Shown here: in pieces, positions 3,477 to 31,352 of the stretch
Numbering within the stretch: the first letter of the stretch is position 1
How the letters are laid out: the number at the start of each line of letters is the position of its first letter
Source: Candidatus Saccharimonadota bacterium
Lineage (GTDB): Bacteria > Patescibacteriota > Gracilibacteria > UBA1369 > 2-02-FULL-48-14
Assembly (NCBI GenBank): GCA_016699145.1
Contig: CP064962.1
Span: 1,200,001 to 1,232,000 of the forward strand
Direction: 5' to 3'
DNA length: 32,000 nt
The notes under the pieces: model-generated
What the model saw: only the letters and a program-made list of their open reading frames with translations
What the model was told of the DNA's origin: nothing
Database searches by the model: none
Program-made: the position numbers and the translations under genes

Positions 3477-3493
3477 AATTAGATAGATGCTAA

Positions 3494-3688: not shown

Positions 3689-3698
3689 TCACCCACCC

Positions 3699-4073: not shown

Positions 4074-4140
4074 ACGCCGAAAGCTTTTATCACTTCCCAT
4101 TCCTGCTATACTCACAAACGAATAATTCCACACTCCAACC

Positions 4141-4746: not shown

Positions 4747-6059
4747 TTTTTGGAAGACTGCTCATCGAAGCCGATCCGATTTTTGCCCAAAGTTTGGATG
4801 GATTTAAGGGCACCTTTTTGAACCGCAGCATCATCACCCTTCTTTTGATGGCGGCTTTTGTTTTTCTCACAACCATTAAAGTCAAAGAGAGCAAGGATGA
4901 AGCAGGTCCCCTGAAGGCGCTGCATTTTTTTGATTTTGCCCTTCCAGCCTTAGTGCTTGAAATCCTTTTCTTGGGATTCATTTTCATTCAAGCCAAATAC
5001 CTTTTTGGTGCAAATGAAAGCATTGTTAACTTTGACATAACTTACTCAGATTACGTTCGTAAAGGCTTCATAGAGCTCTTAGTAACGTCTCTCTTGGGCG
5101 CACTCTTAAGTTATGGAATGACCTTAAAATCTCACGCGCTTGAACTTAAAAAACACGTCAATGCCTTAAAAGGTCTCAATCTTTTCCTCATCTTAGAACT
5201 CTTTGTCATTTTAGCTTCAGCCCTACAAAGAGACCTCATCTACATGGACGTCTATGGTCTAACACGCATCCGTTTTATTGGACTCTTCCTATTGGCTTGG
5301 ATCGCAGGTTTGCTCTTCGCCATGGGCATCTTCAGCATATGGAAGCGCTTCACTGAGCATCGACTGTTCACAAGCTTATTCCTGCTTTCATTTCTAGGTT
5401 TCTTCGCCCTCAATATGGTGAACATAGACGGGTGGATTGCTCAAGCCAGCAAAAATAAAGATTATTTCTACATCAACCATCTTTCTACAGATGCAGCCAA
5501 TGCCTGGGAAGACTCTCTCGAACACGCTCAGTCCACATTGTCTCCTTTTATTTCAAACACAAGCTTAACAGATGAAGAGAAGCAAACCATTGTAGATACG
5601 CAAATTTCTTTATTAACTTTGCAAGAAAAAGTCACCAACTTAGAGGGAAAATACGCTCCAGACACGCTCTCTTCATGGACCGCATGGAACGCCAGCGAAT
5701 GGAAAGCTTTTCAAAAAATCAATGAAAAACCGCAGCTTTATCACGAACAATTGAGCTGTCTGCTCACCCAAGTCGATCAAATTCAATTGAATACCTTTTC
5801 AGATTTTAAACCTCAAAGGAATAAGCGATTCTATGAATATGAATACCCCCTCACCAAAATTGAATATCCTGAAATCCGAGAGGACGATTACGATTTATCA
5901 GGAGTGACGAGACGTTTGTTTAATGTATCTAGCATGGCAGAAGAAGTGCAGGCGAGCTACAATACCCTAGCCTTGAGCAATCAAGAAATTCAGAAAGATG
6001 AACATGGCCTCATCCAAAAACTAAAGGACACTTTCAGTTCCACCCCCTGTCTCCAATAA
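4596..6059 (+). CDS. C-terminal fragment of the same split polytopic membrane protein; the meaningful part probably begins at the A8 tract near 4677
   Basis: Frame-3 ORF. From KKNPNSRFLVMVRSSLLALVVLLIFGRLLIEADPIF onward it encodes further TM helices and then a soluble C-terminal region of about 190 aa. The first ~27 codons after the track's Met overlap the frame-1 ORF and look non-coding. The layout resembles large DUF4153/DUF4173-type membrane proteins, but this comes from memory of the motif style only. Confidence 0.6.
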   Translation: MDHKKHSCFCTKFFSHSLELSEAASHLKKNPNSRFLVMVRSSLLALVVLLIFGRLLIEADPIFAQSLDGFKGTFLNRSIITLLLMAAFVFLTTIKVKESKDEAGPLKALHFFDFALPALVLEILFLGFIFIQAKYLFGANESIVNFDITYSDYVRKGFIELLVTSLLGALLSYGMTLKSHALELKKHVNALKGLNLFLILELFVILASALQRDLIYMDVYGLTRIRFIGLFLLAWIAGLLFAMGIFSIWKRFTEHRLFTSLFLLSFLGFFALNMVNIDGWIAQASKNKDYFYINHLSTDAANAWEDSLEHAQSTLSPFISNTSLTDEEKQTIVDTQISLLTLQEKVTNLEGKYAPDTLSSWTAWNASEWKAFQKINEKPQLYHEQLSCLLTQVDQIQLNTFSDFKPQRNKRFYEYEYPLTKIEYPEIREDDYDLSGVTRRLFNVSSMAEEVQASYNTLALSNQEIQKDEHGLIQKLKDTFSSTPCLQ

Positions 6060-7289: not shown

Positions 7290-9353
7290 CTACTTGCTTT
7301 CAAATCTCCAAACACCGTCCCACCCTGTGAGGGCGGTGTTTTTGAGCATGTCCAAACGTCCCAATAAAGTTTTGGAAGGCCCATCGTTGGGCAGCATAGA
7401 CAGCACGGCTTTGAAACCTTTTTCAGCCTCCGTCCAAGCCCCTTTACGATACGCCGCCAAAGCCCTGTCCCACTCCACCAGCACTTTCTGACCCTCTTCA
7501 CTGGCCCCCTGCAAAGTGCCCAATAGTTCATAAATGTGGATCGCCTTATCCTTGCCTTTCAAACACACGGCATCCACTTCACGGAAAAGGAACTCTCCCT
7601 TAGCCGTTTCATAAGTGCCTTGAGTCACCAAAATGCGTGTGGAATAAAATTTATTCGCCCCTTCCAAACGGGAGGCCGTGTTCACGGTGTCGCCCATGGC
7701 CGTGTAGTCGAAGCGATTTTCGCTACCCATGTTGCCCACAATCGCATCTCCACTCGCCAGCCCAATGCGTATATTCAATGGATATCCCGTGGAGGCATTC
7801 AACTCATTCATTTTTTCACGGATCGCAAGCGCCGTCGCACACGCTTTCACGGCATGATCCAAATTGGGCACGGGGGCTCCAAACAGCGCCATGATGGCAT
7901 CTCCCTCAAACTTATCCACCATCCCTCCCACATTCATGATGACTTTCGACAGCGCATCGAAATAGGTATTGATCACCCCAACCACGGCCTGCGGCTCCAG
8001 CCCTTCGCTGAGGTGAGTGAAGTTCTCAATGTCCAAAAACAGAGCCGTAATCGCGCGCCGTTCACCCCCGAGCTTCAGCATGTCCGGCTGATTCCCAATC
8101 TGTTCCACCAACTCAGGGGACACATAACGCCCAAAAGCCTCTTTCAAACGCCGCCTCTCCGCAAACTCCGTAAAGTTTCGATAAAGGAGGATGGAGATAT
8201 ATCCAGCGACCAATGCAAACACCGGCCAAATTAAATTGATGATGACTCCATGGTCAAAACGCCACTGTGCATAAAATGGAAAGGCAAACAATTCAAGCGC
8301 CAAAAAACACGCAGACCATAGAAGAGGAGAATGCATGAAAATCAAACAGGAAACCGTCAAAATCAACGCGAGGACCAGAGCAAAATCCAAACCACTTTGG
8401 GGAGTTAAAAAAGCTTCATCTAAAATGGTTTGTATGGCATTTGCATGGATTTCAATACCCGGCATGGGTCGGGTAGGATCAATGGGCGTATATTTATTAT
8501 CTTGAAATTCAGAAGCCGTCGGACCAATCAAGACAATTTTTCCAGAAAAAACAGAAGGGTCCACGGTGCCATTCAATACATCCACAATAGAAACAGTTGG
8601 ATAAGAGCCAGTCACACCCGCATAATTGATCAGCATCTCACCTTCACTAAGCGGGATATCAAGAGGTTGCCTCAAATGTTCCTGGGCAAGCTGTAAATCC
8701 ATGTGAGGTTCAATTGTGCCATTCACACTGAGGTAGGCGGGAATGCCATAGACACTTTGAACGTTTGTTTCAGATGAAATATTAAGATTTGCAAAACCAG
8801 TTTTGAGGAACGAGCCAAATAAAACAGTAGGATCGGATTGCTCTCGATAGTCAAAACTCTCTCCTGTAAAGGAGGAAAAATGAGTGGCAAACTTAATGAA
8901 ATAAATGTTATCCCATTTTTCTAAAACAGAAGAAAGGAGCGCATCATAAGGATGCTCCTCATTTAAGTAAGCTAAAATTTGATTGGTAAAATCTATAGCT
9001 TTAGGATACTGAGTGGCGGCTGTATAAATTTCTTCAGAACTCACTCCATTGGCTGGACCATCAAACAGCCAGTCCAACATGATCAAGGAAGGGGAGCCTC
9101 CTTCAATGTATTCAATGGTTTCAGCAAAATAAGTCCGTTTTTTATCTGACTTAAAATCAATGGATGTACTCTCAATTAAAGTCCCATCAAGGGCAACAAT
9201 CACAATTTCATCCGATATTGTGCGCTCCTTATAAAGAGTGTTGCTCAGGCGAAGTTGCAAGGAATGAAAGCCGGGCCTCAGTAAAACACTCAAGAAGAGT
9301 AGAATGGCGCCAATGCCTAGAGCTAAACCCGATTTCAAGAAAGTATTTCGCAC
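7290..9353 (-). CDS. CHASE2 sensor domain-containing class III adenylate/guanylate cyclase
   Basis: - N-terminal TM helix, then an extracytoplasmic domain of about 300 aa (IVIVALD start typical of CHASE2).
- Three TM helices (FALVLALILTVSCLIF ... VFALVAGYISILLY).
- Cyclase catalytic core: RRAITALFLDIENFTHLSE, KFEGDAIMALFGAP, IRIGLASGDAIVGNMGS, YTAMGDTVNTASRLEG.
The start codon is GTG at 9353. Confidence 0.9.
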   Translation of the reverse strand: MRNTFLKSGLALGIGAILLFLSVLLRPGFHSLQLRLSNTLYKERTISDEIVIVALDGTLIESTSIDFKSDKKRTYFAETIEYIEGGSPSLIMLDWLFDGPANGVSSEEIYTAATQYPKAIDFTNQILAYLNEEHPYDALLSSVLEKWDNIYFIKFATHFSSFTGESFDYREQSDPTVLFGSFLKTGFANLNISSETNVQSVYGIPAYLSVNGTIEPHMDLQLAQEHLRQPLDIPLSEGEMLINYAGVTGSYPTVSIVDVLNGTVDPSVFSGKIVLIGPTASEFQDNKYTPIDPTRPMPGIEIHANAIQTILDEAFLTPQSGLDFALVLALILTVSCLIFMHSPLLWSACFLALELFAFPFYAQWRFDHGVIINLIWPVFALVAGYISILLYRNFTEFAERRRLKEAFGRYVSPELVEQIGNQPDMLKLGGERRAITALFLDIENFTHLSEGLEPQAVVGVINTYFDALSKVIMNVGGMVDKFEGDAIMALFGAPVPNLDHAVKACATALAIREKMNELNASTGYPLNIRIGLASGDAIVGNMGSENRFDYTAMGDTVNTASRLEGANKFYSTRILVTQGTYETAKGEFLFREVDAVCLKGKDKAIHIYELLGTLQGASEEGQKVLVEWDRALAAYRKGAWTEAEKGFKAVLSMLPNDGPSKTLLGRLDMLKNTALTGWDGVWRFESK

Positions 9354-9376
9354 AAAAACAAGATATCAATCTTATA

Positions 9377-9405
9377 ATTATACCAGGAAACCTAACTTTT
9401 TGCGA
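9377..9405 (-). promoter_or_regulatory. candidate extended -10 promoter for the cyclase gene
   Basis: The minus strand reads TGGTATAAT: a perfect TATAAT (plus 9377-9382) with a TGn extension. A weak -35 TCGCAA lies 17 nt upstream (9400-9405). The predicted TSS is about 17 nt before GTG 9353. Confidence 0.35.
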
Positions 9406-9412
9406 GCCACTA

Positions 9413-11251
9413 CTAGCTGTTTTCCTCTTTTCGTCTTGAAGCCAGTGCGAGCAGACCTAAACCAACTCCATACCAGGCAACCCCGTCTGTAGTGGTAGCA
9501 CATCCACAATGCCCTCCATCATCACCGCCTATTCCTGTATCATCTTCACCTGTATCATCTGGTTGACGAGTATCATCTTCAATATCCGAAAACCAATGGT
9601 TACCAGATTCCGAGATGCGTAAATCAATCTCATGGTCTGCGTTGCCAGGCCAAATTTGAGTGCTGACCGCTCTTACAGGATCACCCGATCTAAACACCAA
9701 TTCCGTCAACTGCTCAAGGTTTTCAGTGTCGGCATAAGGCCCATAACTGGAATCCCCGTTTGGAGGAGGAGCCCAATCCGTACCTCCTAACAAAATATCA
9801 CTATGAGTTTCAGGTCCTGTAAAGAAATTCACACGACTGGGTTCAGAATGGACAGTTAAGGCGACACCTTCCACACTTACCCCATCCCCAGCGTTAGGTA
9901 GAACGATCTCTCCATTCTCGTTGACATAAGCAGTAGTGCCATGCATCACTGCAGATCCTGCTTCTGGGTTCGCAGGATTCTCATAAATCACAGTACCTTC
10001 CGGAAGGGCGGTTCCCTCAGGGAGTGCGCTGGCAGAAAAATCAGCTTGGAATGCTCCTTCTTGAGAAACATTATTTCCACTGGAGTCCACGACTTCAACG
10101 GTAACTTGATGAGACCCTGCTTCACTTGGATTGAAAGAAATAGAAGCACCTTCCAAATTTTCAGAATCTCCACTGGGCATTACGATAGTCCAACGATAAG
10201 TAAGATCTTCACCAAGTTCTTCATCGTCCATTCCTTGTGCAGTCAGTGTTATATCCGCTCCAACGGCAACATTTAAAGATCCCAATGGCTGACCATTCAC
10301 TTCAATTGAGTTGATGCTTGGTGCATCTTCTACACAGTTATTATCCACTCCATCTTCTGCAGTAACAGTATTCCCAGGGAAACGACTGGCATCCTCATCG
10401 TCACAATCTTCTTCTACTGGGGAGCCATCTCCGTCGTTATCGTTAGGAGAAGTGGTTTCCTGACTGCTCACAATGTCATAACTTGTGCCATTGTTTTTAG
10501 CGTAATATAAGATGCCAGTGCGTTGATCAAAATAAGGTGAACGGGCCTCAGAATCAATCATCTGTTCACAACTGGCACTATCTACAACCCACACTTCACA
10601 ACCCGTTAATCCCGAGGTGTCGCACCCTCTCACAAAAAATACCCTGCCGTTGGTCGAATCTGAACCAGGTTCTTTTGCATCATGAGCCAAGATATTGCCA
10701 GAAGAATCAGTAATATCAAAATGACTCTGGCCGGAATGATAAGGAGAGAAAACAAAATCACTACTGATCTGATCATAGGCGACCCCTCCCATGTAATCGG
10801 GGGAGGTGGGATAGGCGAGAGAAGAAGAACCTGAAGACCAATCTCCACTGGTGTCTACGCCCGAATAAATATCAGCCGAACCAACGGACATGAAGTAGAC
10901 CTGAGAAGCATTGACAAACTGTACTCCATAAGGATTTGCAGGCATCCCAGTCAAATTCACTGGAGAAGAAACACTTGCACCATCGGGCATGTACCTTTGC
11001 CCGAAGACCGTTCCATCAGTAGAACTAAACATCAGCCCATTCTCACTCTTGGAAGGCCAGGCTTCATGTAGAGTCGAAGAATCAGCACCTGCCACAGTAG
11101 TGGCAGGATTAAAAGTATAGCCACAATCCACCGCCTTAGCTTGACCTGAAAAAGCTCCAATGGCAGTTGCTAAAGCAAGAGCACCAGCATTGCTTTTCAA
11201 TGAAGAAAAAGCACCAGGCTTCGAAGCATTTAATGAATCCACTCGTTTCAT
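9413..11251 (-). CDS. secreted 612-aa mosaic protein: signal peptide, beta-rich N-terminal domain, Cys/Asp-rich metal-binding-type motif, PKD-like Ig domain, and a C-terminal Cys-motif/TM/basic sorting signal
   Basis: - Signal peptide ends ...FSGQAKA|VDC.
- Residues 270-310: DNDGDGSPVEEDCDDEDASRFPGNTVTAEDGVDNNCVEDAP. This matches the DCDDxDxxxxPG...DGxDNxC pattern.
- Residues ~311-405 are PKD-like (LTYRWTIVMPSGDS...SHQVTVEVVDSSGN).
- C-terminus: GGHCGCATTTDGVAWYGVGLGLLALASRRKEENS. Confidence 0.8.
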   Translation of the reverse strand: MKRVDSLNASKPGAFSSLKSNAGALALATAIGAFSGQAKAVDCGYTFNPATTVAGADSSTLHEAWPSKSENGLMFSSTDGTVFGQRYMPDGASVSSPVNLTGMPANPYGVQFVNASQVYFMSVGSADIYSGVDTSGDWSSGSSSLAYPTSPDYMGGVAYDQISSDFVFSPYHSGQSHFDITDSSGNILAHDAKEPGSDSTNGRVFFVRGCDTSGLTGCEVWVVDSASCEQMIDSEARSPYFDQRTGILYYAKNNGTSYDIVSSQETTSPNDNDGDGSPVEEDCDDEDASRFPGNTVTAEDGVDNNCVEDAPSINSIEVNGQPLGSLNVAVGADITLTAQGMDDEELGEDLTYRWTIVMPSGDSENLEGASISFNPSEAGSHQVTVEVVDSSGNNVSQEGAFQADFSASALPEGTALPEGTVIYENPANPEAGSAVMHGTTAYVNENGEIVLPNAGDGVSVEGVALTVHSEPSRVNFFTGPETHSDILLGGTDWAPPPNGDSSYGPYADTENLEQLTELVFRSGDPVRAVSTQIWPGNADHEIDLRISESGNHWFSDIEDDTRQPDDTGEDDTGIGGDDGGHCGCATTTDGVAWYGVGLGLLALASRRKEENS

Positions 11252-11288
11252 ACCATTCTAGGGGACAGAAGTTAAACACTACATAATC

Positions 11289-11316
11289 ATAATACAAAGT
11301 TTTTCAAAAAAGTCAA
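11289..11316 (-). promoter_or_regulatory. near-consensus sigma-70-type promoter upstream of the 612-aa gene
   Basis: The minus strand reads TTGACT (plus 11311-11316), a 16-nt spacer, then TATTAT (plus 11289-11294). This sits about 38 nt upstream of ATG 11251, inside the 80-nt gap after the PilX-like gene. Confidence 0.5.
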
Positions 11317-11331
11317 CCCAATGACGCCTCT

Positions 11332-12462
11332 TCAGTTTGACAAACTATAGCTGCCACTACCCTCACCTGTTGTAGATCTAAAAAGTAAAAAAGTGTCATA
11401 GTAAAGGCTGACGCTTCCTTGAGCATAACCTTCACCCACTACAAAAGACCAAGCATTGGCAAGAGCCTCCCCACTGTCCACTTCCAATTGCCATTCTAGA
11501 TAAGGAATAGAAGCCAAGGTGTTTAATTCTTCAAGCGGATGTACAAGCTCCAGCTGCAAGTACAAATAGCGTAAATTGGGCAAAAGAGTGACGCTTTCAA
11601 TCTCTGTGGTAGAAGTGCTTTGTAAAACGAGATCATCGTTGTTGATTTTCTCTTCATAAATTTCTGTATTTGAAGGACTTGTTGGCCGGCAATCGGAGAA
11701 ACCACATCGACCCAGTGTATCATCAGTCATTAAGTGAACAGGATTCCCATCCATATCTTCGCCAATCAACTCCCAGGCAACAATATTGTCTCCACCTAGA
11801 GGCCCACTGAGATTTGTTTCATCCAGCTCAAACCTCACACACCCGCTCTCTAAAGAGCCATCCTCGCAAGGGGTGCGGATGCGCAGATTCCAGCCGGTGA
11901 AGCCGGCCAGGTCGGCAGGCAGCACGGGGTTGCCGTTTTCGTCGGTGTCAAAGAGGGGAATGATGGTGCTTTCTCCATAAGACAACTTGTTCCAGTGGCA
12001 AGGGTGATCCACATCGATCGATAAAGCGTCGATGACTTCACCATCGCTCGGATCAATGTAATCCAGCACGGAACACTCCTCAGAATTGCCCGCCGTGCCC
12101 GTGCCAAAAAGAGGAGTATAAAAATAATCGCCATAGCCCCTCTGCTTGGCTAAAACTCTAAAATTCCCCCACGAATCACAGCTCGTCGTTCCATCCGCAT
12201 TCCCACAAAAAGCTTCAGATTCAGTGGATTCGTAACCCGGACTGTAATCATTCACTCCATCTCCATCGGGGTCTTGAATCGCCAAAATGGCCGCTTCTGC
12301 TGCCGATTGCGCCGCCAAATACGCCTGCGAACTGCTGCCCAAATCGTTGTACAATTGCAGTTTTTCATTGGTGTTTTGAATCGCCGAGCCCGCAACGATC
12401 ATCATCACCGTCATCACGAGAAAGGCAAAAACCAAAGAATAAGCGGAACGAGTATCATTCAT
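11332..12462 (-). CDS. PilX-like minor pilin / pilus-associated protein (376 aa)
   Basis: I place the start at ATG 12462. This gives an ATGAATGA overlap with the upstream stop at 12455-12457. The N-terminus MNDTRSAYSLVFAFLVMTVMMIVAGSAIQ...SSQAYLAAQSAAEAAILAI resembles the PilX N-terminal hydrophobic segment plus its following helix. The 69 codons upstream of this start in the track ORF lie inside the upstream gene and look non-coding. Confidence 0.6.
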   Translation of the reverse strand: MNDTRSAYSLVFAFLVMTVMMIVAGSAIQNTNEKLQLYNDLGSSSQAYLAAQSAAEAAILAIQDPDGDGVNDYSPGYESTESEAFCGNADGTTSCDSWGNFRVLAKQRGYGDYFYTPLFGTGTAGNSEECSVLDYIDPSDGEVIDALSIDVDHPCHWNKLSYGESTIIPLFDTDENGNPVLPADLAGFTGWNLRIRTPCEDGSLESGCVRFELDETNLSGPLGGDNIVAWELIGEDMDGNPVHLMTDDTLGRCGFSDCRPTSPSNTEIYEEKINNDDLVLQSTSTTEIESVTLLPNLRYLYLQLELVHPLEELNTLASIPYLEWQLEVDSGEALANAWSFVVGEGYAQGSVSLYYDTFLLFRSTTGEGSGSYSLSN

Positions 12463-13480
12463 AAGAAACAACTTTAGAATACACGCCTGTGCTGAACGTG
12501 CGTTGAATAAGAATAGAAGGCACTTCCCCCAAAATGCCCGAGCTGTAAGCCTCGCTGAGCGCCACTTCGAGTGTGACCGTGACCTGGGGTTGCACCTGAG
12601 CATCTTCCTCTGCAAAAGCCCGATAAGGATCTTCAGAAGGAGCCGCCAAGACGCTGAAATTGAGCACACTCAAATTGGAAGAGGTGAGGGGCGCAAAATC
12701 ATCGGCATCAGGAACAGCCTGGCCGTTCACTCCAAGATCCTCACACACATAATTCTCGGCACAAGTCCAAGTGTCTTCAAGGCCGTTGTTGTCACTGTCC
12801 GTGCCCCTCATCACCAGGCGTGAAAGCCCATATTCTGTAGTGGAACCCTCCAAGAGTTCTCTCACATACAAAATGCGTTCATCCCCTGTGTTGTTCACCA
12901 AAAAAAGTTCCTCCGTAAAAGGGATACCCAGCCCCCGACAAAAAAGAGCTCCGAGGCCATTGTTCCCTCGACAAAAAGCATTCATCGCAACGGGATCGGC
13001 ACTGTAGCCAAACGCTTCGATTCCAGGGAAGGGATGCACCCCAGTATCCTCATCCCCTTCGGCATAAATGGGAATTTCACCGGGACAATCCTCAGGATGC
13101 AAACCGCCGTCGGCACAATTGGCTCCATAATACGAAGGCACGCCACTGTAAGGTCCGGCCAATTGACCCCCCGTGCCCGGATGGAAAAAACTTTGGGCAT
13201 AAGCTCCATACTCAGGGCTGTCCCAGCCGGCATCGCCCGCCACTTCCCGAGAATAATAAAGTTCATAATCCAAAGTGCTGTGCTCCAAATCACGAGCGAT
13301 TTTATCCATGAGGGCTTGAGCTTCGGTGTACAGATAAACCTGTGCTTGAATTTTTCGAGCCGAACGCAAACCATTCACAAGCAAAGTCAAAGTGACCACG
13401 GCAATCACGGCGAACAAAGTGAGGGTGATGAGCACTTCCACTAGGGTAAAAGCACGAAAAGCAGAGCGTTTAATAAACAT
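12455..13480 (-). CDS. prepilin-type N-terminal cleavage/methylation domain protein (PilW/GspJ-like by size and position)
   Basis: N-terminus MFIKRSAFRA|FTLVEVLITLTLFAVIAVVTL. This is the class III signal: F at +1, E at +5 and a hydrophobic helix. Position -1 is Ala rather than Gly. Confidence 0.8.
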   Translation of the reverse strand: MFIKRSAFRAFTLVEVLITLTLFAVIAVVTLTLLVNGLRSARKIQAQVYLYTEAQALMDKIARDLEHSTLDYELYYSREVAGDAGWDSPEYGAYAQSFFHPGTGGQLAGPYSGVPSYYGANCADGGLHPEDCPGEIPIYAEGDEDTGVHPFPGIEAFGYSADPVAMNAFCRGNNGLGALFCRGLGIPFTEELFLVNNTGDERILYVRELLEGSTTEYGLSRLVMRGTDSDNNGLEDTWTCAENYVCEDLGVNGQAVPDADDFAPLTSSNLSVLNFSVLAAPSEDPYRAFAEEDAQVQPQVTVTLEVALSEAYSSGILGEVPSILIQRTFSTGVYSKVVSYE

Positions 13481-14117
13481 GAGAAATGAGGCGGGTCAAA
13501 GAGACATTTTGGGTGATTTCGGCTAAAGACCATTCCACAGTCACGGTCGCTTCAAAGCAGGTGTCCTCAGGGCAAAGATCATTGCCAGCACTGTCCAAGG
13601 GGTCATAGTCAATGGAGATGAGCCGTTTGAAAGCATTGGCATCCACACTGCTAAAACCCGAAACCGAGCTGTTGTGTCGGTCGCTGTAAAGGGGAACGGT
13701 GGTGCCGGTGCTGTCGGTGTACTCAAACAAATCCATAAACCCGTCGGTATCGGTCACGGCCAGTTGCATGTTCCAGCGGTACAAAGGCGCATTGCTGAAA
13801 TTTTGAATCAGATAATATTCTTCTCCATCGGTGATGGCGGTGGCCGTGGCGCAATCGCTCGAAAGCGTGAGGCCCAGTTTATTCCAACAGGTGTCGGCAT
13901 CGCTGGCAAAGAGCAAATAATTGCTGTCTCGAATGTTTTTCACGGCATCCAAGCCTTCCAGGGCCAATTCCAGGGCCACCAACTTCTCACCGATCACATA
14001 ATTTCCCCTCAAAGCGGTACGAAGCATAGAAAGAGCCGCCGCGCTCGATAAAACGATCACTGTAATGGCGATCAAAGTTTCTATTATCGATTCTGCGGAG
14101 CGGGAACGCAGGGTCAT
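13470..14117 (-). CDS. degenerate prepilin-like minor pilin (PilV-like by position)
   Basis: N-terminus MTLRSRSA|ESIIETLIAITVIVLSSAAAL, with E at +5 and a hydrophobic helix. It is the first gene of the minus-strand pilin operon and overlaps the next gene by 11 nt. Confidence 0.65.
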   Translation of the reverse strand: MTLRSRSAESIIETLIAITVIVLSSAAALSMLRTALRGNYVIGEKLVALELALEGLDAVKNIRDSNYLLFASDADTCWNKLGLTLSSDCATATAITDGEEYYLIQNFSNAPLYRWNMQLAVTDTDGFMDLFEYTDSTGTTVPLYSDRHNSSVSGFSSVDANAFKRLISIDYDPLDSAGNDLCPEDTCFEATVTVEWSLAEITQNVSLTRLISHVY

Positions 14118-14152
14118 GCATCCATCTTAAAGATGCTCACAAAAAAAATCCA

Positions 14153-14161
14153 TGCTAGAAT
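14153..14161 (+). promoter_or_regulatory. extended -10 element (TGcTAGAAT) positioned for a leaderless transcript of the FimT/GspH-like pilin gene
   Basis: TGC TAGAAT at 14153-14161, followed by exactly 6 nt (tgaagc) and ATG 14168. No convincing -35 element. Confidence 0.4.
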
Positions 14162-14167
14162 TGAAGC

Positions 14168-14695
14168 ATGCACGCCCCCTCCTACAAAAAACCCGCCTTC
14201 ACTTTTATAGAACTGGTCATCGTCATTCTCATCATGTCGGTTTTGGCGGTGACTTTGGCCTTGGCGTATCAACGAGTGCAACTCAAAGTGCGTTACGACG
14301 CCCACGTGAACACCATCACCGACTTTTTTCAGCGCGCACGCAGTTATTCACTTTCCACGCTCATGGTGAATGGGGCTGAACCCACGCAGTATTACCTTTT
14401 GGAGGTGTTTGAAGACGGGATCAACATTGTGGCCCACAGCGAAAATCTTTCGCAAGTTTTGGACAGCTATACTTTCGACGAAGACATTCGCTTTCAAAGG
14501 GAACTGGAAATTTATTATTTTCCACCATCTGGGGAGCTGTGTTTAGGCATGAGTCATTGCTACGATCCCAATTACACCGGGACCCCTTCCACGGAGCAAT
14601 CCAGCATACTTTCAGACGCTTCACAGACTTATTCCACCGAATTTTCCATCACTCAAACAGGAGGCTTTATTGAAATCACACCTTTTGTGCCGTGA
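14168..14695 (+). CDS. prepilin-type minor pilin (FimT/FimU/GspH-like)
   Basis: N-terminus MHAPSYKKPA|FTFIELVIVILIMSVLAVTLAL is a canonical FTxxE class III signal with Ala at -1. The 175-aa size and the helix ...HVNTITDFFQRARSYSLS fit GspH/FimT-type pseudopilins. It is divergent from the minus-strand pilin operon across a 50-bp gap. Confidence 0.8.
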   Translation: MHAPSYKKPAFTFIELVIVILIMSVLAVTLALAYQRVQLKVRYDAHVNTITDFFQRARSYSLSTLMVNGAEPTQYYLLEVFEDGINIVAHSENLSQVLDSYTFDEDIRFQRELEIYYFPPSGELCLGMSHCYDPNYTGTPSTEQSSILSDASQTYSTEFSITQTGGFIEITPFVP

Positions 14696-24610: not shown

Positions 24611-24685
24611 GCAGGTATCGTATAGCGGCTATTATGCCACCTTGCCAAGGTGGAGATGCGGGTTCGACTCCCGCTACTTGCTCCA
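24611..24685 (+). tRNA. tRNA-Gly (anticodon GCC), with encoded CCA
   Basis: Hand-folded cloverleaf:
- Acceptor stem GCAGGTA/TACTTGC (one G-T pair).
- Anticodon stem CCACC/GGTGG with loop TTGCCAA, giving anticodon GCC.
- T arm GCGGG-TTCGACT-CCCGC.
- Discriminator T, then CCA at 24683-24685. Confidence 0.93.
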
Positions 24686-24724
24686 AAAGAGCTTTGATCA
24701 TCACAACGTGGTGGGCAAAGCAGC

Positions 24725-24753
24725 TTTACTGGATGCAAAAATCCTTTTAGAAT
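24725..24753 (+). promoter_or_regulatory. candidate promoter for the response regulator / synthase / kinase operon
   Basis: TTTACT (24725-24730), a 17-nt spacer, then TAGAAT (24748-24753), 23 nt before ATG 24777. Confidence 0.4.
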
Positions 24754-24776: not shown

Positions 24777-25454
24777 ATGAAAATCCTACTTGTCGAAGAT
24801 GAAAAACAAATCGCAGACTTTATTGTAGACGTTCTGACGAAAGAAGGTCATTCTACAACAGTTTCAGATTCCATCGATGCGGTTCTTAAAAACAAGTGGG
24901 CCTCTCATCATGACGTGATTGTACTGGACCTCATGCTGGCAGAGGGAAAACGGGGCGAAGAATTGGTGAGAGCCTTACGTAAAAATAAAACGACCATCCC
25001 AATCTTGGTTTTGAGTGCCTTGGGACAAATTTCCTCCAAAGTGGAGCTGATCAATATGGGTGCGGACGATTACATGACCAAACCCTTCGATGTCCAAGAA
25101 TTTTTAGCTCGACTCAACGCTCTGTATCGCCGTCACTTGGAAAAACAGTCGAATGCGCTCGCTACTTATGGAGACATCCGCTTCCATTGGAAACAAGGCA
25201 AAGTGATCCGTGCGGGCCACGAAATTCAACTCACCAAAAAAGAATCGGACTTGCTTCAATTTTTACTGGAACGCAAAGGGGAAGTGGTGTCATTTGAAAA
25301 CATTTTAATGCGAGTGTGGCGAGCCAAAGTGGGCTATCATTCCAATGTGGTGCAAGCCGTGGTCCGCCGCCTGCGTAAAAAACTGGACACCGGCTTCAAG
25401 CATGAATTAATCCACAACGCTCATGGCGTGGGCTATATACTAAAGATAGAATAA
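24777..25454 (+). CDS. OmpR/PhoB-family DNA-binding response regulator
   Basis: Receiver domain: MKILLVEDE, VIVLDLMLAEG (phospho-acceptor Asp), LVLSA, GADDYMTKPF. C-terminal winged helix: LTKKESDLLQFLLERKGEVVSFENIL...VVQAVVRRLRKKL...IHNAHGVGYIL. I prefer ATG 24777 over the track's TTG 24765. Confidence 0.9.
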   Translation: MKILLVEDEKQIADFIVDVLTKEGHSTTVSDSIDAVLKNKWASHHDVIVLDLMLAEGKRGEELVRALRKNKTTIPILVLSALGQISSKVELINMGADDYMTKPFDVQEFLARLNALYRRHLEKQSNALATYGDIRFHWKQGKVIRAGHEIQLTKKESDLLQFLLERKGEVVSFENILMRVWRAKVGYHSNVVQAVVRRLRKKLDTGFKHELIHNAHGVGYILKIE

Positions 25455-25471
25455 CCATTAATATAAATCCT

Positions 25472-26881
25472 ATGGAAGATCCTCATCATGGCGATCTAGA
25501 TGAAGATATAATACCAACAGCTTTTGAAGCACGAGCTCGGGAGTCTATTGTTGAATACAATAAACGTGTAGAAGGAAATTTGAGGTATAAATTCCTTTCA
25601 CCTCCAGGTTCATACCGATACAAATTTGACGACAACGATTACATAGGTTTTAGACTCAAAAGACGTGAAATTCGTCGCAAACTTCTACAGTTAAATCAAG
25701 AGGATGATGAATCACAATCGCCCTTATTTAAACCAGATGCAACCATTGAAGGCGAAATAGCAAAATACATGGGTTTTAAAAGAGGCATCCCTGTTGTAAA
25801 TGGAACAGCTGCAAATCGTTTAGTGATCGATCACTTGTTTCAATTGGCCTGTGGAAAGGACAAATTCGGTAAGATCCAATCTGATCCTGCTGCCTTATAT
25901 GTCGTGGCTCCACGTGAAATACACACCTCTTTGAGACACCCTCTGAATTTGCTGGGTGTAAACATTCATAACATCGGTGACCATAACAATTTCCAAAGGA
26001 TAAGACGAACTTTGGAAGAAACTCCAACAGAAAAAAAATTCAGGGTGCTTATTTTGGAAGCCATTTATAGCGGTAGAGGTTTGACGTATACAGAGGAAGA
26101 AATGCAAGAAATGAAAGGAATTCTCATCTTGGCAAAAGAGAAAGGATTTTGTGTGGTGGTTGACATGTCCCACGATGCTTTTCTTTTAGGTACCAACCTA
26201 TTTCACAAACATGGGCTCACACAATATATCGACATCGCTACCATCAGCGGTTCAAAGGCAAAAGGAGGAGGACATGCACTTCTCCTTTTAAATGATAATG
26301 ACAAAACCTTACGTGAATCTTTTTCAGGCGACCCTTCTTATGTTTTTTCTTCCGCTCCAGATAGAGAGGAGTCCATGATCGACGAAGAACTTCTCGGCTT
26401 TCATAGTCTACATGGTGAAGCCCGAGGGAAAGTGGCCCTAGCTACAGCCAATGACTTAGCCCGGGTACTGAATGAAAGGAACTTATCCACATCTTGGGCA
26501 CCCAGCCCCTCAGTAACAGTAACTTCGTCCATCGTTTTTTTACCAATAGGGTCACCTTCATCAGCCTTTTTTGCTAGAGATGTCCTAGCAAAGCTGGGTA
26601 TTAAAGTAGCTGTATTCATTCCACCAGGAGTACCTGGCGTAGTGAGCGGCTTAAGATTTTCAGCTTCCTATTCAGAAGACCCTGCTTCTAGTGTAGATGC
26701 TGTAGCTAATGCAGTTGAAACAGTCATTGATTGTGTGGGGAAAAACATCCAACTTGCACTCCAGTATTCTGACCCCAAAGAAAGGGTGTTAGATAGAAAA
26801 CTATATGAAGCAATCCTTTCTAGGGGCATACCGATGCCTAAGCCCTTACGAATTCAAGGTGGAGTTGTATATTTCCATTAA
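25472..26881 (+). CDS. alpha-oxoamine synthase family PLP-dependent acyltransferase (BioF/Kbl/SPT/CqsA-LqsA superfamily), subfamily unresolved
   Basis: Colinear family motifs:
- KFDDNDYIGF (family pattern fxsNDYLGL)
- IEGEIAKYMGFKRGIPVVNGTAAN (LExxlAxfxg...sGxxAN)
- EIHTSL (HaS)
- IGDHNNF (f-HnD)
- RVLILEAIYSGRG
- FCVVVDMSHDAFLLG (vDeAHxxGxxG)
- IDIATISGSKAKGGG (Schiff-base Lys in the SK motif)
- IVFLPIGS...KVAVFIPPGVPGVVSGLRFSAS (pPtVPxgxarlRi)
The gene lies 17 nt after the regulator gene and 3 nt before the kinase gene. Confidence 0.8.
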   Translation: MEDPHHGDLDEDIIPTAFEARARESIVEYNKRVEGNLRYKFLSPPGSYRYKFDDNDYIGFRLKRREIRRKLLQLNQEDDESQSPLFKPDATIEGEIAKYMGFKRGIPVVNGTAANRLVIDHLFQLACGKDKFGKIQSDPAALYVVAPREIHTSLRHPLNLLGVNIHNIGDHNNFQRIRRTLEETPTEKKFRVLILEAIYSGRGLTYTEEEMQEMKGILILAKEKGFCVVVDMSHDAFLLGTNLFHKHGLTQYIDIATISGSKAKGGGHALLLLNDNDKTLRESFSGDPSYVFSSAPDREESMIDEELLGFHSLHGEARGKVALATANDLARVLNERNLSTSWAPSPSVTVTSSIVFLPIGSPSSAFFARDVLAKLGIKVAVFIPPGVPGVVSGLRFSASYSEDPASSVDAVANAVETVIDCVGKNIQLALQYSDPKERVLDRKLYEAILSRGIPMPKPLRIQGGVVYFH

Positions 26882-26884
26882 AAA

Positions 26885-28981
26885 ATGTCCCTCACTTATC
26901 AAATTCTTGCGTTAAATGCCTTTCTGAATGGTTTGACAGGCATAATAGCTATGTTTTTGGTGCATAAACAAAACCCAAAAAGTCCCATCAATCGTACCTT
27001 ATCAGTTTTTTATTTTTTTGGAGCAATATGGGCCTTGGGATTTTTCTTCCCTTTCACTCAAGACAGCAGAACGCTCACCCTCTTTTCCTTTCAAATATTG
27101 CATGTGGGAGCCCTGTTTTTAACAGTATCTCACCTGCATTTCATTTGTGCTTTTTTAAACATTTATCACGAAAAAAGAACCTTAATCATTTCAGGTTATG
27201 TGTTCAACCTGTTGATCTTGCCTTTTGTTTTCACCCCTCTCTTCATTGAAGACGTCGTCCCTAAAGGCCAGCTTGTCTATTATCCTGATCCGGGAATCCT
27301 TTATCACATTTGGTTGACGGGTTGGACATTTTTGATCGTCCATTCACTGTATTTGTCCATAACCCACTACGGAAAAACCACGGGCATTAAAAAGCTTCAA
27401 CTCTATTACATCATCATCGCCGATATTTTGGCCTTCAGTTTCGGGTCCACAAGCTTTTTATTGGCTTATAATATCAATTTTCCCCCTTATCTCACTTTCA
27501 TTTCATCCATCCATACGGTCATATTGGCCTATATTGTTCTTCGCTACCGCTTTCTAGACTTCAAAGTGACTTTTTCCAATTGGGGAAAGAGTGTGGTGGC
27601 TTACTTTTTTGCCACCCTTATCGCGATTTTTGTTTTAATGCTGGGGGAGGGATTGCCCCTGGGCCTCCACGTATTTCTTATTTCCACCCTCTATCTCTTC
27701 AGTTACCTAAGGATTCGATCCTATTTTGACAGCTCTCATTTTTATAAAATATTTCAGCTCACCAACACCGTTCATCTTAAAAACGTAGTGAACAATTTTA
27801 TTGCTCAAAACCACTTTTATGAAAATTTAGGACAACTGCAAAGCGACCTGAGGAAAATATTTCGCAATCAATTCCAAATCGCTTCCGTAAAAGTCGTGCT
27901 CCTAAGTTCCAAAACAGAAGAATATCCCCATCTTGAAAAACATTTCAACAAGTACAAAGGCTTTTTGGTCACTAAAGAAGTCCTTTTTCGAAGTGAAACT
28001 CAAAAACACACACCGCCTTTTTACGAAGAACTGCTTTCTTTGGGGGAACTGTGTTTTCCTCTCTATAAAAGCAATCGAAATTTGATTGGATTCTTGACCT
28101 TTGGGAAAAAGCCTTTCGATGAAGTGTATACCGAAACGGAGCTGCAAATCCTACAAGGCGCCGCGCATTACATCAGTTTATTGCTCTCAGCCATTTTATA
28201 CAACGTGCACTTGCAAAGTGAAATCAAGGTGAAAACACAAAAATTGCTGGAGCAAAACAAAGAGATTAAAAAGCTCTACGAGCTCGAAAAAGAAACCAGC
28301 GCGGTTCTGAGTCATGAACTGAAAACGCCCATCGTCATCTTAAGCAACACCCATTGGTCTCTCGTCAAATACCTGGAGGGACACCAGGCTCAACTGGGCC
28401 CGGCTTTGTCTTCCTTGCAAAAGTTTTCTAAAGAGATGAAAGAGGCCATACAGCGCATGAACACCATGGCCAATTCCATCTTTCACTTGCGCGAGGTGGA
28501 GTATCAATTGTCTTTGGACTTGCAAAAACTGGACTGGCCCACTCAATTGGATCAACTTTTGCATCACATCGAAAACTTGGCTTCCAAGAAAAACCTGAAA
28601 TTCTCTGCTCATTTTGACCTTAAAAAAGGCACTTTTTACGCCGCCTCGGCTCAATTTGAACAGGTGCTCACCATTTTGCTCGACAACGCGGTAAAATACA
28701 CCCCCCAGGGTTCTATAAAACTCAGTGTGTCCCAAAAGGAAAAAACCCTACTCGCCGAAGTCACCGACACAGGCCCGGGCATCGCTCCACAAATACGCAA
28801 AAACCTTTTTAAACGCTTTTTCCGTGGGCCTCACGGTCGTCAAGTGGAGGGCTTGGGCATCGGTCTTTACATGGCCAAAAAAATCATGGATCAGATTGGA
28901 GGGAGCATTTCCGTTCAAGAAAATCCAAAAAAACAAGGGGTCACTTTCCGCCTGGAATTGCCCATCCACACAAGGTTTTGA
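26885..28981 (+). CDS. sensor histidine kinase with a large N-terminal multi-TM (7TM-type) sensor region
   Basis: - About 9 hydrophobic helices in residues 1-275, with only short loops.
- A cytoplasmic linker, possibly GAF-like.
- H-box SAVLSHELKTPIVIL.
- N box LLDNAVKYTP, G1 VTDTGPGI, G2 GLGIGLYMAKKI.
No receiver domain, so it is not a hybrid kinase. Confidence 0.9.
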   Translation: MSLTYQILALNAFLNGLTGIIAMFLVHKQNPKSPINRTLSVFYFFGAIWALGFFFPFTQDSRTLTLFSFQILHVGALFLTVSHLHFICAFLNIYHEKRTLIISGYVFNLLILPFVFTPLFIEDVVPKGQLVYYPDPGILYHIWLTGWTFLIVHSLYLSITHYGKTTGIKKLQLYYIIIADILAFSFGSTSFLLAYNINFPPYLTFISSIHTVILAYIVLRYRFLDFKVTFSNWGKSVVAYFFATLIAIFVLMLGEGLPLGLHVFLISTLYLFSYLRIRSYFDSSHFYKIFQLTNTVHLKNVVNNFIAQNHFYENLGQLQSDLRKIFRNQFQIASVKVVLLSSKTEEYPHLEKHFNKYKGFLVTKEVLFRSETQKHTPPFYEELLSLGELCFPLYKSNRNLIGFLTFGKKPFDEVYTETELQILQGAAHYISLLLSAILYNVHLQSEIKVKTQKLLEQNKEIKKLYELEKETSAVLSHELKTPIVILSNTHWSLVKYLEGHQAQLGPALSSLQKFSKEMKEAIQRMNTMANSIFHLREVEYQLSLDLQKLDWPTQLDQLLHHIENLASKKNLKFSAHFDLKKGTFYAASAQFEQVLTILLDNAVKYTPQGSIKLSVSQKEKTLLAEVTDTGPGIAPQIRKNLFKRFFRGPHGRQVEGLGIGLYMAKKIMDQIGGSISVQENPKKQGVTFRLELPIHTRF

Positions 28982-29077: not shown

Positions 29078-30169
29078 ATGAACTACAACGTATTTGCGTC
29101 CAACCCCACACTTTCCCCCCAAGAAATTGCTTTGCGAGAATTGGTGGATCACTTGCTCATCGTTTTGAGTGGAAAAGAGCAGTACATCATTAAAAACCGT
29201 TTTGCCCTGGGGGAAGAAACGAAAAGAAAAACCCTGAACGAAATTGGAAAACATTTTGGCATCACCCGAGAACGCGTGAGGCAAATCGAAAAAACGGCTT
29301 TGCGCAAATTGGAACGTAACGCGCAAAACACCAATCTAAAAACCCTCACCGAGTTCACAAAAGCTCTGCTTGTTAAAGAAGGAGGAGTGGCTCGCGACAG
29401 CGACTTTAAAAACCTGCTTTTACAATTTTTGCCCAACATCAGTGAAGAAGAACTTCAAGATTTGCATTTGACTCTCAGTCTCGATTCCGAAATTTGCTTT
29501 GAATCCAATACTTTTCATTTTCATCCTTATTGGAGGATCAAAAACATCGAAAATGCTTTTTTGATGAAAATCACCTCCATGACACTGGCCTTGCTGGATA
29601 AAAGCAAAAAATCCATCCCTTTGAATGAATTGCAGCAGAGTCTCAACAGTGCCCTGCAACTCTCTTTGAGCGGTGCCGTGATCCGCAATTTCTTGTCCAT
29701 TTCCAAAGCCTTTAAGTTCACCGACAACAACGAAGTGGGCCTTTACAGTTGGCGTCACATTCATCCACGCACTTTGCGAGATAAAATTTTCTTTGTTTTG
29801 AACAAGGAAAAAAGAGCTCCTCATTTTGACAAAATCAGCGATCTGATTAAAAAAGCCGAATTCGATGAGAAACAGGTCAACACTCAAGCCGTACACAATG
29901 AATTGATCCGCAACGAAAACTTTATTTCGATTGGACGAGGCATTTATGCCCTTAAAACTTGGGGCTATAAAACAGGCACGGTGGCCGATGTGATCACTGA
30001 AATTCTCAGCGATGGCATTCCTCGCAGTTGTGAAGAAATCACGAAAGAAGTGATGAAACAACGTCATGTCAAAGCCATCACCATTCGCTTGAACCTTAAA
30101 AACAAAGCTCGCTTCGCTCGCGTAGGAAGAGACAAATACGCCCTGCTGGGGGAAGCTCAAGCTCTATAA
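29078..30169 (+). CDS. sigma-70 region 4-only domain fused to two or three HARE-HTH-like winged-helix repeats
   Basis: The N-terminal LSGKEQYIIKNRFALGEETKRKTLNEIGKHFGITRERVRQIEKTALRKLER is a textbook sigma-70 region 4 (-35-binding HTH). Regions 1-3 are absent. The C-terminal repeats end in the HARE-HTH hallmark F-x-x-(V/I)-G-R-G-x-Y-A-L: NENFISIGRGIYALKTW and KARFARVGRDKYALL. Confidence 0.75.
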   Translation: MNYNVFASNPTLSPQEIALRELVDHLLIVLSGKEQYIIKNRFALGEETKRKTLNEIGKHFGITRERVRQIEKTALRKLERNAQNTNLKTLTEFTKALLVKEGGVARDSDFKNLLLQFLPNISEEELQDLHLTLSLDSEICFESNTFHFHPYWRIKNIENAFLMKITSMTLALLDKSKKSIPLNELQQSLNSALQLSLSGAVIRNFLSISKAFKFTDNNEVGLYSWRHIHPRTLRDKIFFVLNKEKRAPHFDKISDLIKKAEFDEKQVNTQAVHNELIRNENFISIGRGIYALKTWGYKTGTVADVITEILSDGIPRSCEEITKEVMKQRHVKAITIRLNLKNKARFARVGRDKYALLGEAQAL

Positions 30170-30188
30170 ACTTTATCACACGCCAACC

Positions 30189-31352
30189 ATGTCCACACGC
30201 CTTAAAACGATGGCAAGCTTGCTTGTCCTCTCTATCTTTCTTCAGTTTTTTTCCATGCCTTTGGCTTCTGCAGAAGGAAATCTCCTCACCAATCCCGGAG
30301 CCGAAACAGGAGATTTTACAGGATGGACTCGCGTGAATGGAGGGGATGGCTGGGCTTTGACCTCTGCACCTTGGTACGTCCATGGGGGTACGTATGCCTT
30401 CGTGGCCTCTTATGCCTTTGGGACACTGACTCAAGTGGTGGACTTAGTGGGCGAAGGCTACTCACGCTCTTTTTTAGACCGAGAGCCTCAAGTGGATTTC
30501 AGCACTTTCATCATGGGTCTGGACAGTTTTTCGAGCCCAGAAGACCCTTATTCGGTGACCGTGCTTCTTTTGAATGAAGAAGAAGAGGAAATTGCCAGCT
30601 TCGAAACAGGAGATCAAACGGCAACAGGGGAATGGCAAGAAATCAGCCACTCTTTCACGAATTATGGCAACGGATTGCGTTACGTTTCAGTGGAATTGCG
30701 CGGCAGCGATCAAGAATTTTGGGCAGGAAACTATGGAGCTATTTTTGATGACACGTCACTCTCCATCGTAGGGAACCCCCATTCAGGCAGCATTCCCTTT
30801 CCGGTAACGATTTTTGTACCCGAAGAATCCTCTGAAGAATCGCTCAAAGAGTCGCCTTTTGAAGATGTGACCGAAACAGATCACAAGACCGCGATTGAGT
30901 ACCTCTACGAAGCAGACATCGTCAATGGTTATGAAAAAGAAAATGGAGGCAAAGAATTCAAACCAGATCAATCCATCAATCGTGCCGAATTCTTAAAGAT
31001 GGTCATGGCTCTGACCGAAGAAGAAACAGAAGAACAGCACAATTGTTTCACCGATGTTCAGGATCAATGGTTTGCGCCTTATGTCTGCACCGCCCACAAA
31101 AAGGGCATAATCACCGGCTATGGAGATGGAAGCTTTAAACCGGAGCAGCCCATCACTTTTGAGGAAATGTTCACCCTCGCTCTCAGAGCTTATGGCTACA
31201 CTCTCAAATCCGATGCCAATGAGGCATGGTACAAAGCTTATTGGGACAAAGTGGTCAGCCTCAATTTGCTCGAAGAACTCAAACCCATGCTTCATAAAGA
31301 GGCCAATCGAGGGGAAGCCGCTCAATTGCTCTACAACATGGAAGTCCCTTGA
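30189..31352 (+). CDS. secreted protein with an N-terminal CBM/galactose-binding-like domain and C-terminal SLH repeats
   Basis: - Signal peptide ...FSMPLASA|EGN.
- The N-terminal NLLTNPGAETGDFTGWTRVNGG is typical of jelly-roll carbohydrate-binding modules.
- SLH repeats: FEDVTETDHKTAIEYLYEADIVNGY...FKPDQSINRAEFLKMV and FTDVQDQWFAPYVCTAHKKGIITGYGDGSFKPEQPITFEEMFTL, plus a degenerate third repeat. Confidence 0.85.
   Translation: MSTRLKTMASLLVLSIFLQFFSMPLASAEGNLLTNPGAETGDFTGWTRVNGGDGWALTSAPWYVHGGTYAFVASYAFGTLTQVVDLVGEGYSRSFLDREPQVDFSTFIMGLDSFSSPEDPYSVTVLLLNEEEEEIASFETGDQTATGEWQEISHSFTNYGNGLRYVSVELRGSDQEFWAGNYGAIFDDTSLSIVGNPHSGSIPFPVTIFVPEESSEESLKESPFEDVTETDHKTAIEYLYEADIVNGYEKENGGKEFKPDQSINRAEFLKMVMALTEEETEEQHNCFTDVQDQWFAPYVCTAHKKGIITGYGDGSFKPEQPITFEEMFTLALRAYGYTLKSDANEAWYKAYWDKVVSLNLLEELKPMLHKEANRGEAAQLLYNMEVP

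Follow-up and report, generated by a model that had tools for sequence, protein, structure and literature searches.

The cqs and lqs loci are defined by a layout in which an alpha-oxoamine synthase (AOS)-type enzyme is encoded beside a histidine kinase with several transmembrane (TM) helices (PMC3376566). CqsS is a hybrid kinase that feeds LuxU/LuxO. Its sensor and that of LqsS have six helices, with conserved motifs for ligand binding in TM1-3; LqsS retains sensor motifs of the CqsS type, and LqsA and CqsA are 45% identical (PMC3376566). Here we describe a three-gene operon, encoding a regulator, a pyridoxal phosphate (PLP) enzyme and a kinase, from a Candidatus Peregrinibacteria metagenome-assembled genome. 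The operon lies in a 32,000-nucleotide stretch (positions 1,200,001 to 1,232,000; hereafter, the window) of the 1.34-Mb contig CP064962.1, and its products (QQR54833-35) are each the sole member of their own 90%-identity cluster. It is a candidate for a self-contained small-molecule signalling module, with an enzyme that we place next to the CqsA/LqsA synthases and a kinase sensor that appears to come from another family than that of CqsS.

Bacteria of the Candidate Phyla Radiation (CPR, or Patescibacteria) are uncultured and host-dependent, and have minimal genomes. In a survey of this group, Bernard et al. 2020 (mSystems, PMC7567580) reported 362 CqsA homologues, 51 of them beside 'CqsS-like' kinases. 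Rows 114-116 of Table S4 of that work list, for three Peregrinibacteria genomes, an enzyme (KKP38944.1, called P0004 below) together with its neighbouring kinase. The enzyme was found only by the CqsA_seed hidden Markov model (153 bits), and the kinase was called 'CqsS' only from a generic HATPase FunFam match (E=1.4e-7) (PMC7567580). The same table also has CqsA homologues beside a kinase in Moranbacteria and Portnoybacteria. We noted that many of the other 'CqsA homologues' of the survey adjoin tdh and are evidently Kbl, and we found no later papers in the literature that test the CPR CqsA/CqsS syntenies. An alpha-hydroxyketone (AHK)-type circuit in this lineage is already published, as a computational hint (PMC7567580). 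The suggestion of a new lineage, made in the initial annotation of the window, is weakened accordingly, the pair in rows 114-116 being orthologous to the one described here.

Results

The three open reading frames (ORFs) of the operon are all on the + strand and are separated by 17 nt and then by 3 nt (Table 1), in agreement with the initial annotation. Against Pfam, the PLP enzyme matched Aminotran_1_2, the aminotransferase class I/II family in which that annotation had proposed to look for it, at only 34.8 bits, and a single-sequence search of the PDB gave BioF as the best match, at E=0.003. Few relatives exist among known proteins. When 1.84 billion representatives were scanned exhaustively with HMMER, 10 proteins came up at E<=1e-3 and, besides the query, 1 protein (P0004) at E<1e-10. 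A word-index search with the enzyme found nothing beyond the query, and such searches with P0004 and with the alignment of the enzyme and P0004 found only the queries and P0013. The latter turned out to be a common BioF/Kbl-like AOS from a Gram-negative setting and was dropped. By comparison, CqsA of V. cholerae (a query sequence 100% identical to 2WK8) matches SPT at 1e-38 and BioF at 1e-29. Since the matches of the window enzyme are far weaker than these, the distance that separates it from other AOS enzymes is, by sequence comparison, much greater than the distances among the classical AOS subfamilies. The high divergence supposed at the outset thus stands.

Every significant sequence match to the enzyme was nevertheless an AOS enzyme. 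In alignments with CqsA, BioF, Kbl, SPT, ALAS and the search matches, residues H151, S153, H171, S200, D231, H234, K262 and R395 were invariant, and H151, S200, D231, H234, K262 and R395 correspond to H133, S179, D204, H207, K236 and R361 of E. coli BioF. The catalytic set of AOS enzymes (the stacking His, the Asp and His at the PLP ring, the Schiff-base Lys and the C-terminal Arg) is complete, as the initial annotation had read it, and an N55-D-Y motif is also present. An AlphaFold (AF2) model built from a ten-sequence alignment reached a predicted local distance difference test score (pLDDT) of 80-90 in the catalytic core (a single-sequence AlphaFold run had a pLDDT of 36), and the top 50 Foldseek matches of the AF2 model in the PDB were all AOS enzymes (BioF, SPT, ALAS, CqsA, Kbl). 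The alignment behind the model was made of AOS sequences. The model supports the AOS fold and cannot separate subfamilies. Taken together, the alignments and the predicted fold indicate that the protein is a fold-type I PLP enzyme of the AOS superfamily with an intact active site. The window enzyme and P0004 also carry C-terminal extra segments, absent from other AOS enzymes, of ~65 and ~130 aa, respectively, with a common L-S-(R/K)-G-(I/L)-P patch.

Among AOS subfamilies, the enzyme and P0004 point towards CqsA. The best NCBIfam model for both was NF005526, the AHK autoinducer synthase family (CqsA/LqsA/JqsA; family cut-off 428 bits), which scored 43.8 bits versus 39.9 bits for bioF with the window enzyme, and 140.5 versus 102.4 bits with P0004. 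The ratio for P0004 resembles that of the CqsA-like P0008 (294 versus 210), while BioF-like proteins show the reverse pattern (for example, bioF 363 versus NF005526 170). When a profile of the enzyme and P0004 was searched against the whole PDB, CqsA came first (58 bits, E=6.5e-15), followed by SPT (48.9 bits), Kbl (41.1), BioF (32.4) and ALAS (21.7), and a direct match of V. cholerae CqsA to P0004 had E=1e-25. Where BioF, Kbl, SPT and ALAS have a Gly-rich loop, the window enzyme and P0004 have a CqsA-like S-x-x-F. We built a neighbour-joining tree of 22 AOS sequences (363 columns, 300 bootstraps) that included verified CqsA, SPT and ALAS, E. coli BioF and Kbl, and CqsA-like genes from Vibrio, Ralstonia, Tistrella and Streptomyces replicons. 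In this tree the window enzyme and P0004 grouped with 96% bootstrap, and their union with the CqsA clade also had 96%; they came out as sister to the CqsA/LqsA clade and not within it. A nesting in BioF, Kbl or SPT, which the initial annotation had kept in view, was not recovered by this distance-based tree, which puts the enzyme outside those clades.

Two further proteins of the comparison bear on the extent of the CqsA family. P0007 (802 aa), from the exhaustive search, consists of two AOS domains fused in one polypeptide. The whole protein scored 697.7 bits against NF005526 (cut-off 428), and its C-terminal half, the best-matching stretch, is a bona fide member of the CqsA family; the N-terminal half is SPT/Kbl-like. 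An annotated cqsA on plasmid NZ_CP109501.1 of Streptomyces sp. NBC_01426 (5968-7158 of locus L018) is 44% identical to V. cholerae CqsA, with no kinase adjoining and STAS-domain proteins on its flanks. Since a Streptomyces plasmid carries cqsA, genes of the CqsA family are not restricted to Proteobacteria, contrary to the initial annotation, in which all known examples were proteobacterial.

The kinase matched HisKA_7TM at residues 18-226 with 40.9 bits (cut-off 28.6), followed by HisKA and HATPase_c (85.9 bits). A 7TM match over threshold with DHp and catalytic domains after it makes the protein a member of the HisKA_7TM (PF16927) family; the domain is common in bacterial and archaeal kinases. 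From the N terminus, the kinase has the HisKA_7TM sensor (1-228), two more TM helices, a cytoplasmic GAF-like linker, the DHp domain (H477) and the catalytic domain, with the H, N, G1, F and G2 boxes at 477, 599, 628, 642 and 656. The GAF_2 match in the linker (residues 382-434) is weak, 18.8 bits, which is under the Pfam threshold of 28.6. A hydropathy scan found ~9 TM segments, as many as had been counted at first, with a positive-inside pattern that agrees with an N-out/C-in orientation. The longest predicted external loop has ~17 residues (121-137). Because the external loops reach only this length, a sizeable periplasmic domain is absent, again as first described.

We also compared the kinase, region by region, with that of the P0004 locus. 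Identity was 50% in the 7TM bundle, 37% in the linker/GAF-like region, 29% in DHp and 25% in the catalytic domain, the 7TM bundle thus being the best conserved part of the protein. Among the conserved residues of the bundle are those of a V-V-P-K-G...Y-Y-P-D loop and of Y-H-I-W-L. This conservation, together with the short loops, would be expected of a ligand site embedded in the membrane. For a comparison with CqsS we used the genuine CqsS encoded at the cqsA locus of V. campbellii and the non-hybrid kinase adjoining a cqsA-like gene of Ralstonia, which have CqsS sensor motifs, such as FPQPYEN, in common. No HisKA_7TM match was found in V. campbellii CqsS, even at E<=1, and hhalign gave a probability of only 0.06-0.24% for the alignment of the Peregrinibacteria TM profile with a profile of the CqsS and Ralstonia sensors. 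The likeness to the CqsS/LqsS sensor that the initial annotation had in mind was therefore not borne out. Nor does the non-hybrid form of the kinase, listed there as a difference, set the locus apart from known ones, since Legionella LqsS and the Ralstonia kinase are also non-hybrid.

P0004 (586 aa; Peregrinibacteria GW2011_GWF2_33_10) is 30% identical to the window enzyme over the core. On every contig with P0004, a 702-aa HisKA_7TM kinase begins 2 nt downstream of the enzyme gene, and this adjacency recurs on several independent metagenome contigs. The kinase of the P0004 locus (L003), for which the precomputed Pfam list likewise gives HisKA_7TM, is orthologous to the window kinase over its full length, with 36% overall identity. 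Because the pair recurs with a 2-nt gap where the enzyme is only 30% identical, the adjacency of the enzyme and kinase genes is, on the evidence of gene order, more than chance, and the pair has been kept across deep divergence. The regulator is not conserved, as no OmpR-type gene was found within 10 kb of P0004. In its place stands, on L003, a LOG/SLOG-family ('lysine decarboxylase-like') gene (9179-9892), 108 nt 5' of the enzyme gene and on the same strand. On one 83-kb contig (Ga0208977_1000134; loci L010 and L012) the P0004-kinase locus occurs twice, 47.5 kb apart; the two copies are 100% identical over 13.8 kb, and the doubling is probably either an assembly wrap-around or a recent duplication.

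A genome scan with the kinase sensor found the P0004 genome only, in a set of species representatives that apparently does not include the window's own genome. The same scan of metagenomes found the P0004 genome and two further loci, L013 and L014. L013 (8112-12254 of contig Ga0307989_1000792) encodes a 702-aa orthologue of the kinase at 9725-11833, 41% identical in the 7TM region and with a HisKA_7TM match of 49.7 bits, followed by a convergent receiver-only regulator. The gene upstream of the L013 kinase encodes a 535-aa protein that has no match in Pfam, NCBIfam or the PDB and no similarity to AOS enzymes. A resemblance to SAM-methyltransferase motifs I/II noticed by eye in this ORF (ILENYASGSGYD...FYD) was supported by no tool, and an analogy of L013 with PhcB/PhcS was likewise unsupported and is not claimed. 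L014 (225-1707) encodes a 361-aa truncated kinase paralogue, in which the equivalents of TM5-7 are fused straight to the DHp and catalytic core; it lacks helices 1-4 as well as the GAF-like linker, and the same receiver-only regulator adjoins. Of the regulator-synthase-kinase synteny that the initial annotation had hoped to see conserved, the synthase-kinase part was thus recovered at P0004, while the regulator is absent there and L013 lacks the synthase.

The regulator (QQR54833.1) matched Response_reg (71 bits) and the winged-helix Trans_reg_C (76 bits). A receiver with a phospho-acceptor Asp, joined to Trans_reg_C, places it in the OmpR/PhoB family, and the acidic pocket D8/E9, the phospho-acceptor D51, S80 and K102 are all present. 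Its NCBIfam matches were to OmpR-family models only, and since every one of them was under the equivalog cut-off, a specific orthologue cannot be assigned. An in-frame TTG at 24765 is a possible alternative start.

Table 1. Coordinates of the operon genes and of features upstream of them (window positions).
Feature	Position	Strand	Basis or remark
OmpR/PhoB-type response regulator, 225 aa	24777..25454	+	ATG start; Pfam, NCBIfam
Divergent AOS-fold PLP enzyme, 469 aa	25472..26881	+	Pfam, NCBIfam, AF2 fold, neighbour-joining tree
Non-hybrid sensor histidine kinase, 698 aa	26885..28981	+	Pfam, hydropathy, motif boxes
Candidate operon promoter, TTTACT-17-TAGAAT	24725..24753	+	between tRNA-Gly and regulator gene
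tRNA-Gly(GCC) gene	24611-24685		ends 91 nt before regulator ATG

Scans for an operon promoter and terminator yielded nothing beyond chance level. Across the region, 9 promoter-like sites were found versus 8.7 expected from shuffles; the site listed in Table 1 is for this reason a mere promoter candidate. An imperfect hairpin (24691-24721) comes after the tRNA-Gly gene. Transfer RNA genes often serve as sites of integration, so that the operon could belong to an island; its GC content (0.42 versus 0.45 for the window) is uninformative on horizontal transfer.

The other genes of the window encode housekeeping proteins (PNPase, LeuRS, CorA), envelope proteins (SLH, pilin-like, PGA_cap) and a CHASE2 cyclase. 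The latter, a 687-aa membrane protein with CHASE2 and adenylate/guanylate cyclase domains (7290-9353, - strand), adds a second signalling gene to the window. A surface/pilus-type gene cluster (9413-14695) includes a PKD-domain protein (9413-11251, - strand) and two proteins with N-terminal methylation (type IV pilin-like) signatures at 12455-13480 (- strand) and 14168-14695 (+ strand). Two genes (29078-31352) lie directly 3' of the operon: the first encodes a 363-aa protein with sigma-70 region 4 as its only recognisable domain, and the other a secreted protein with an F-box-associated (FBA) domain and SLH cell-wall anchors. At the opposite end of the window, positions 1-4750 form a low-GC block (0.31-0.35 versus 0.45-0.53 in most of the window) with seven consecutive + strand ORFs (120-367 aa) and no Pfam match, which may be a foreign or lineage-specific island.

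Discussion

The results above are consistent with the operon being a self-contained signalling module that would make, sense and respond to a small molecule; we regard this as plausible, at somewhat less than an even chance. Synthases of the CqsA/LqsA/JqsA family make an AHK or amino-ketone from SAM or aminobutyrate and a medium-chain acyl-CoA. If the chemistry here is like that of CqsA/LqsA, an amino-acid-type substrate and an acyl thioester would be joined by the PLP enzyme in a Claisen-type condensation, to give a hydrophobic amino-ketone or hydroxy-ketone. Gene linkage and the topology of the kinase suggest the further steps. The product would partition into the membrane, where the seven-helix bundle of the co-translated kinase would detect it; ligand occupancy would shift the kinase/phosphatase balance at H477; and the phospho-signal would pass from H477 to D51 of the OmpR-type regulator, which would alter transcription, probably including that of its own operon. 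Gene linkage only is likewise what points to a possible quorum-sensing role, in which a released signal would build up with cell density and be detected by the kinase. The CqsA-LqsA-type circuit of the initial annotation thus survives on the synthase side, in the position of the enzyme as sister to CqsA/LqsA, and fails on homology of the receptor, whose sensor is of the HisKA_7TM type.

A number of observations weigh against such a module. On the synthase side, neither the window enzyme (43.8 bits) nor P0004 (140.5 bits) reaches the 428-bit cut-off of NF005526, only 6-7 of 24 signature positions of the CqsA clade are found in the two proteins, and the tree that unites them with that clade is distance-based and has long branches. 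For these reasons we treat the two enzymes as a separate subfamily, probably sister to CqsA/LqsA, and not as members of that family. The chemistry proposed also needs a supply of acyl-CoA or acyl-acyl carrier protein (ACP) from a reduced genome. On the receptor side, the sensor of the kinase is HisKA_7TM, by profile comparison another family than the CqsS/LqsS sensors, to which it has no detectable homology. As the sensor is not homologous to these, it is gene linkage that carries the receptor half of the analogy with Cqs. The literature names HisKA_7TM only in domain censuses, and a ligand is known for none of these domains; the cytoplasmic GAF-like segment could, moreover, be the real sensor of the kinase. 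The enzyme diverges much faster than its supposed receptor (~25-30% versus 50% identity). Finally, the L013 kinase is preceded, 5 nt upstream, by the unrelated 535-aa protein, and no AOS gene was found on the 18.7-kb L013 contig. Since this kinase adjoins no AOS gene, the conserved sensor need not recognise an AOS product. L013 may be a case of interchangeable upstream partners, or its sensor may read something else.

Alternatively, the enzyme could be a regulated output. In that case it would build part of the membrane or envelope (a sphingoid-type or amino-lipid head-group precursor, for example), the kinase would sense the state of the membrane or envelope and not the product of the enzyme as a diffusible cue, and the enzyme gene would stand in the operon as a member of the regulon or as part of a feedback loop. 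The AOS enzymes do include the lipid-building SPT, which was second in the PDB search with the profile of the pair, and nearby genes encode envelope proteins. Conservation of the 7TM domain at L013, with no AOS gene adjacent, also fits a general sensor of membrane properties. It is, however, the adjacency of enzyme and kinase (2-3-nt gap) that is conserved, and not that of enzyme and regulator. Furthermore, the enzyme groups with signal synthases of the CqsA clade and not with SPT, and the genes beside it include no ACP, reductase or other gene of a lipid pathway. We consider an output of this kind rather unlikely.

A more specific form of the signalling module is that, in Peregrinibacteria, a synthase derived from CqsA came to serve an unrelated HisKA_7TM receptor, with one receptor family standing behind interchangeable upstream 'synthase' genes. 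We judge this unlikely. Were it true, an AOS-like enzyme in two lineages and the 535-aa protein in a third would be parts of a family of modular cassettes that make and sense a signal, with which ultra-small bacteria that depend on hosts might communicate with one another or with those hosts.

The kinase might also sense inside the cell: its GAF-like segment would read a substrate or product of the enzyme, or the enzyme would dock on the kinase as a co-sensor via its lineage-specific terminal extension, and the module would report a metabolite (for example, host-derived acyl-CoA, SAM or an amino acid) and not cell density. The GAF_2 match and the fairly conserved linker would suit such a role, as would the C-terminal segments of both enzymes with their common patch, and the near-zero spacing of the genes permits translational coupling, which favours a protein complex. 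On the other hand, the GAF match is below the Pfam threshold, conservation in the kinase is highest in the membrane bundle and not in the cytoplasmic linker, and the docking of enzyme and kinase is purely hypothetical, so that we hold sensing of this kind to be quite improbable. That the enzyme is an ordinary metabolic BioF, Kbl, SPT or ALAS orthologue caught by chance inside a two-component operon would agree with its generic Pfam match, with BioF as its best single-sequence PDB match and with the CPR 'CqsA homologues' that adjoin tdh and are Kbl, but is highly improbable, given that every equivalog score is more than 380 bits short of its cut-off, that the exhaustive search yielded 10 weak matches only, that the enzyme nests in none of these clades and lacks their Gly-rich loop, that no bio or tdh gene is found among the genes of the 32-kb window, and that adjacency to the kinase is kept across 30% enzyme identity.

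If the operon is indeed a signalling module, AHK-type signalling would extend past the characterised Proteobacteria, a CqsA-type product would be readable by a receptor other than CqsS, and the HisKA_7TM domain would gain its first ligand. The keeping of a signal synthase, a sensor and a regulator would then mean that chemical communication repays its cost even in minimal genomes. With three small genes, the module is tractable in E. coli without culturing the organism.

Comparison with known systems

The locus is like the Vibrio CqsA/CqsS system in that an AOS-fold PLP synthase adjoins a multi-TM kinase without a periplasmic domain. The window enzyme has the Schiff-base lysine and other catalytic residues in common with Vibrio CqsA, which is also its nearest clade and its top PDB profile match, but the two are only ~20% identical. 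Unlike CqsS, a six-helix hybrid, the kinase described here has HisKA_7TM and two further helices, is non-hybrid and has an OmpR-type regulator in its operon. The arrangement of the genes differs too, as cqsA and cqsS of V. campbellii are convergent, whereas here regulator, synthase and kinase follow one another on one strand.

Legionella LqsA-LqsR-HdeD-LqsS and Janthinobacterium JqsA/JqsS/JqsR share with the window operon the clustering of a synthase, a non-hybrid membrane kinase and a separate regulator (PMC3376566). LqsS, however, has the sensor motifs of the CqsS type, which the window kinase does not; LqsR has a unique output domain, whereas the window regulator carries a standard OmpR/PhoB winged helix; and the window enzyme is far outside the range of the 45% identity between LqsA and CqsA. 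With BioF, Kbl, SPT and ALAS, the enzyme has the same fold and the same catalytic residues, but it is without their Gly-rich loop, stands outside their clades, has no pathway neighbours and is linked to a kinase.

The Peregrinibacteria pair of Bernard et al. is orthologous to the enzyme and kinase of the window; the present locus differs from it in its much more divergent enzyme and its in-operon OmpR-type regulator; the genome of the window was deposited later. What the present analysis adds to that pair is a divergent member with an OmpR regulator, the identity of the receptor as HisKA_7TM, the probable placement of the enzymes as a sister clade, and the counter-example of L013.

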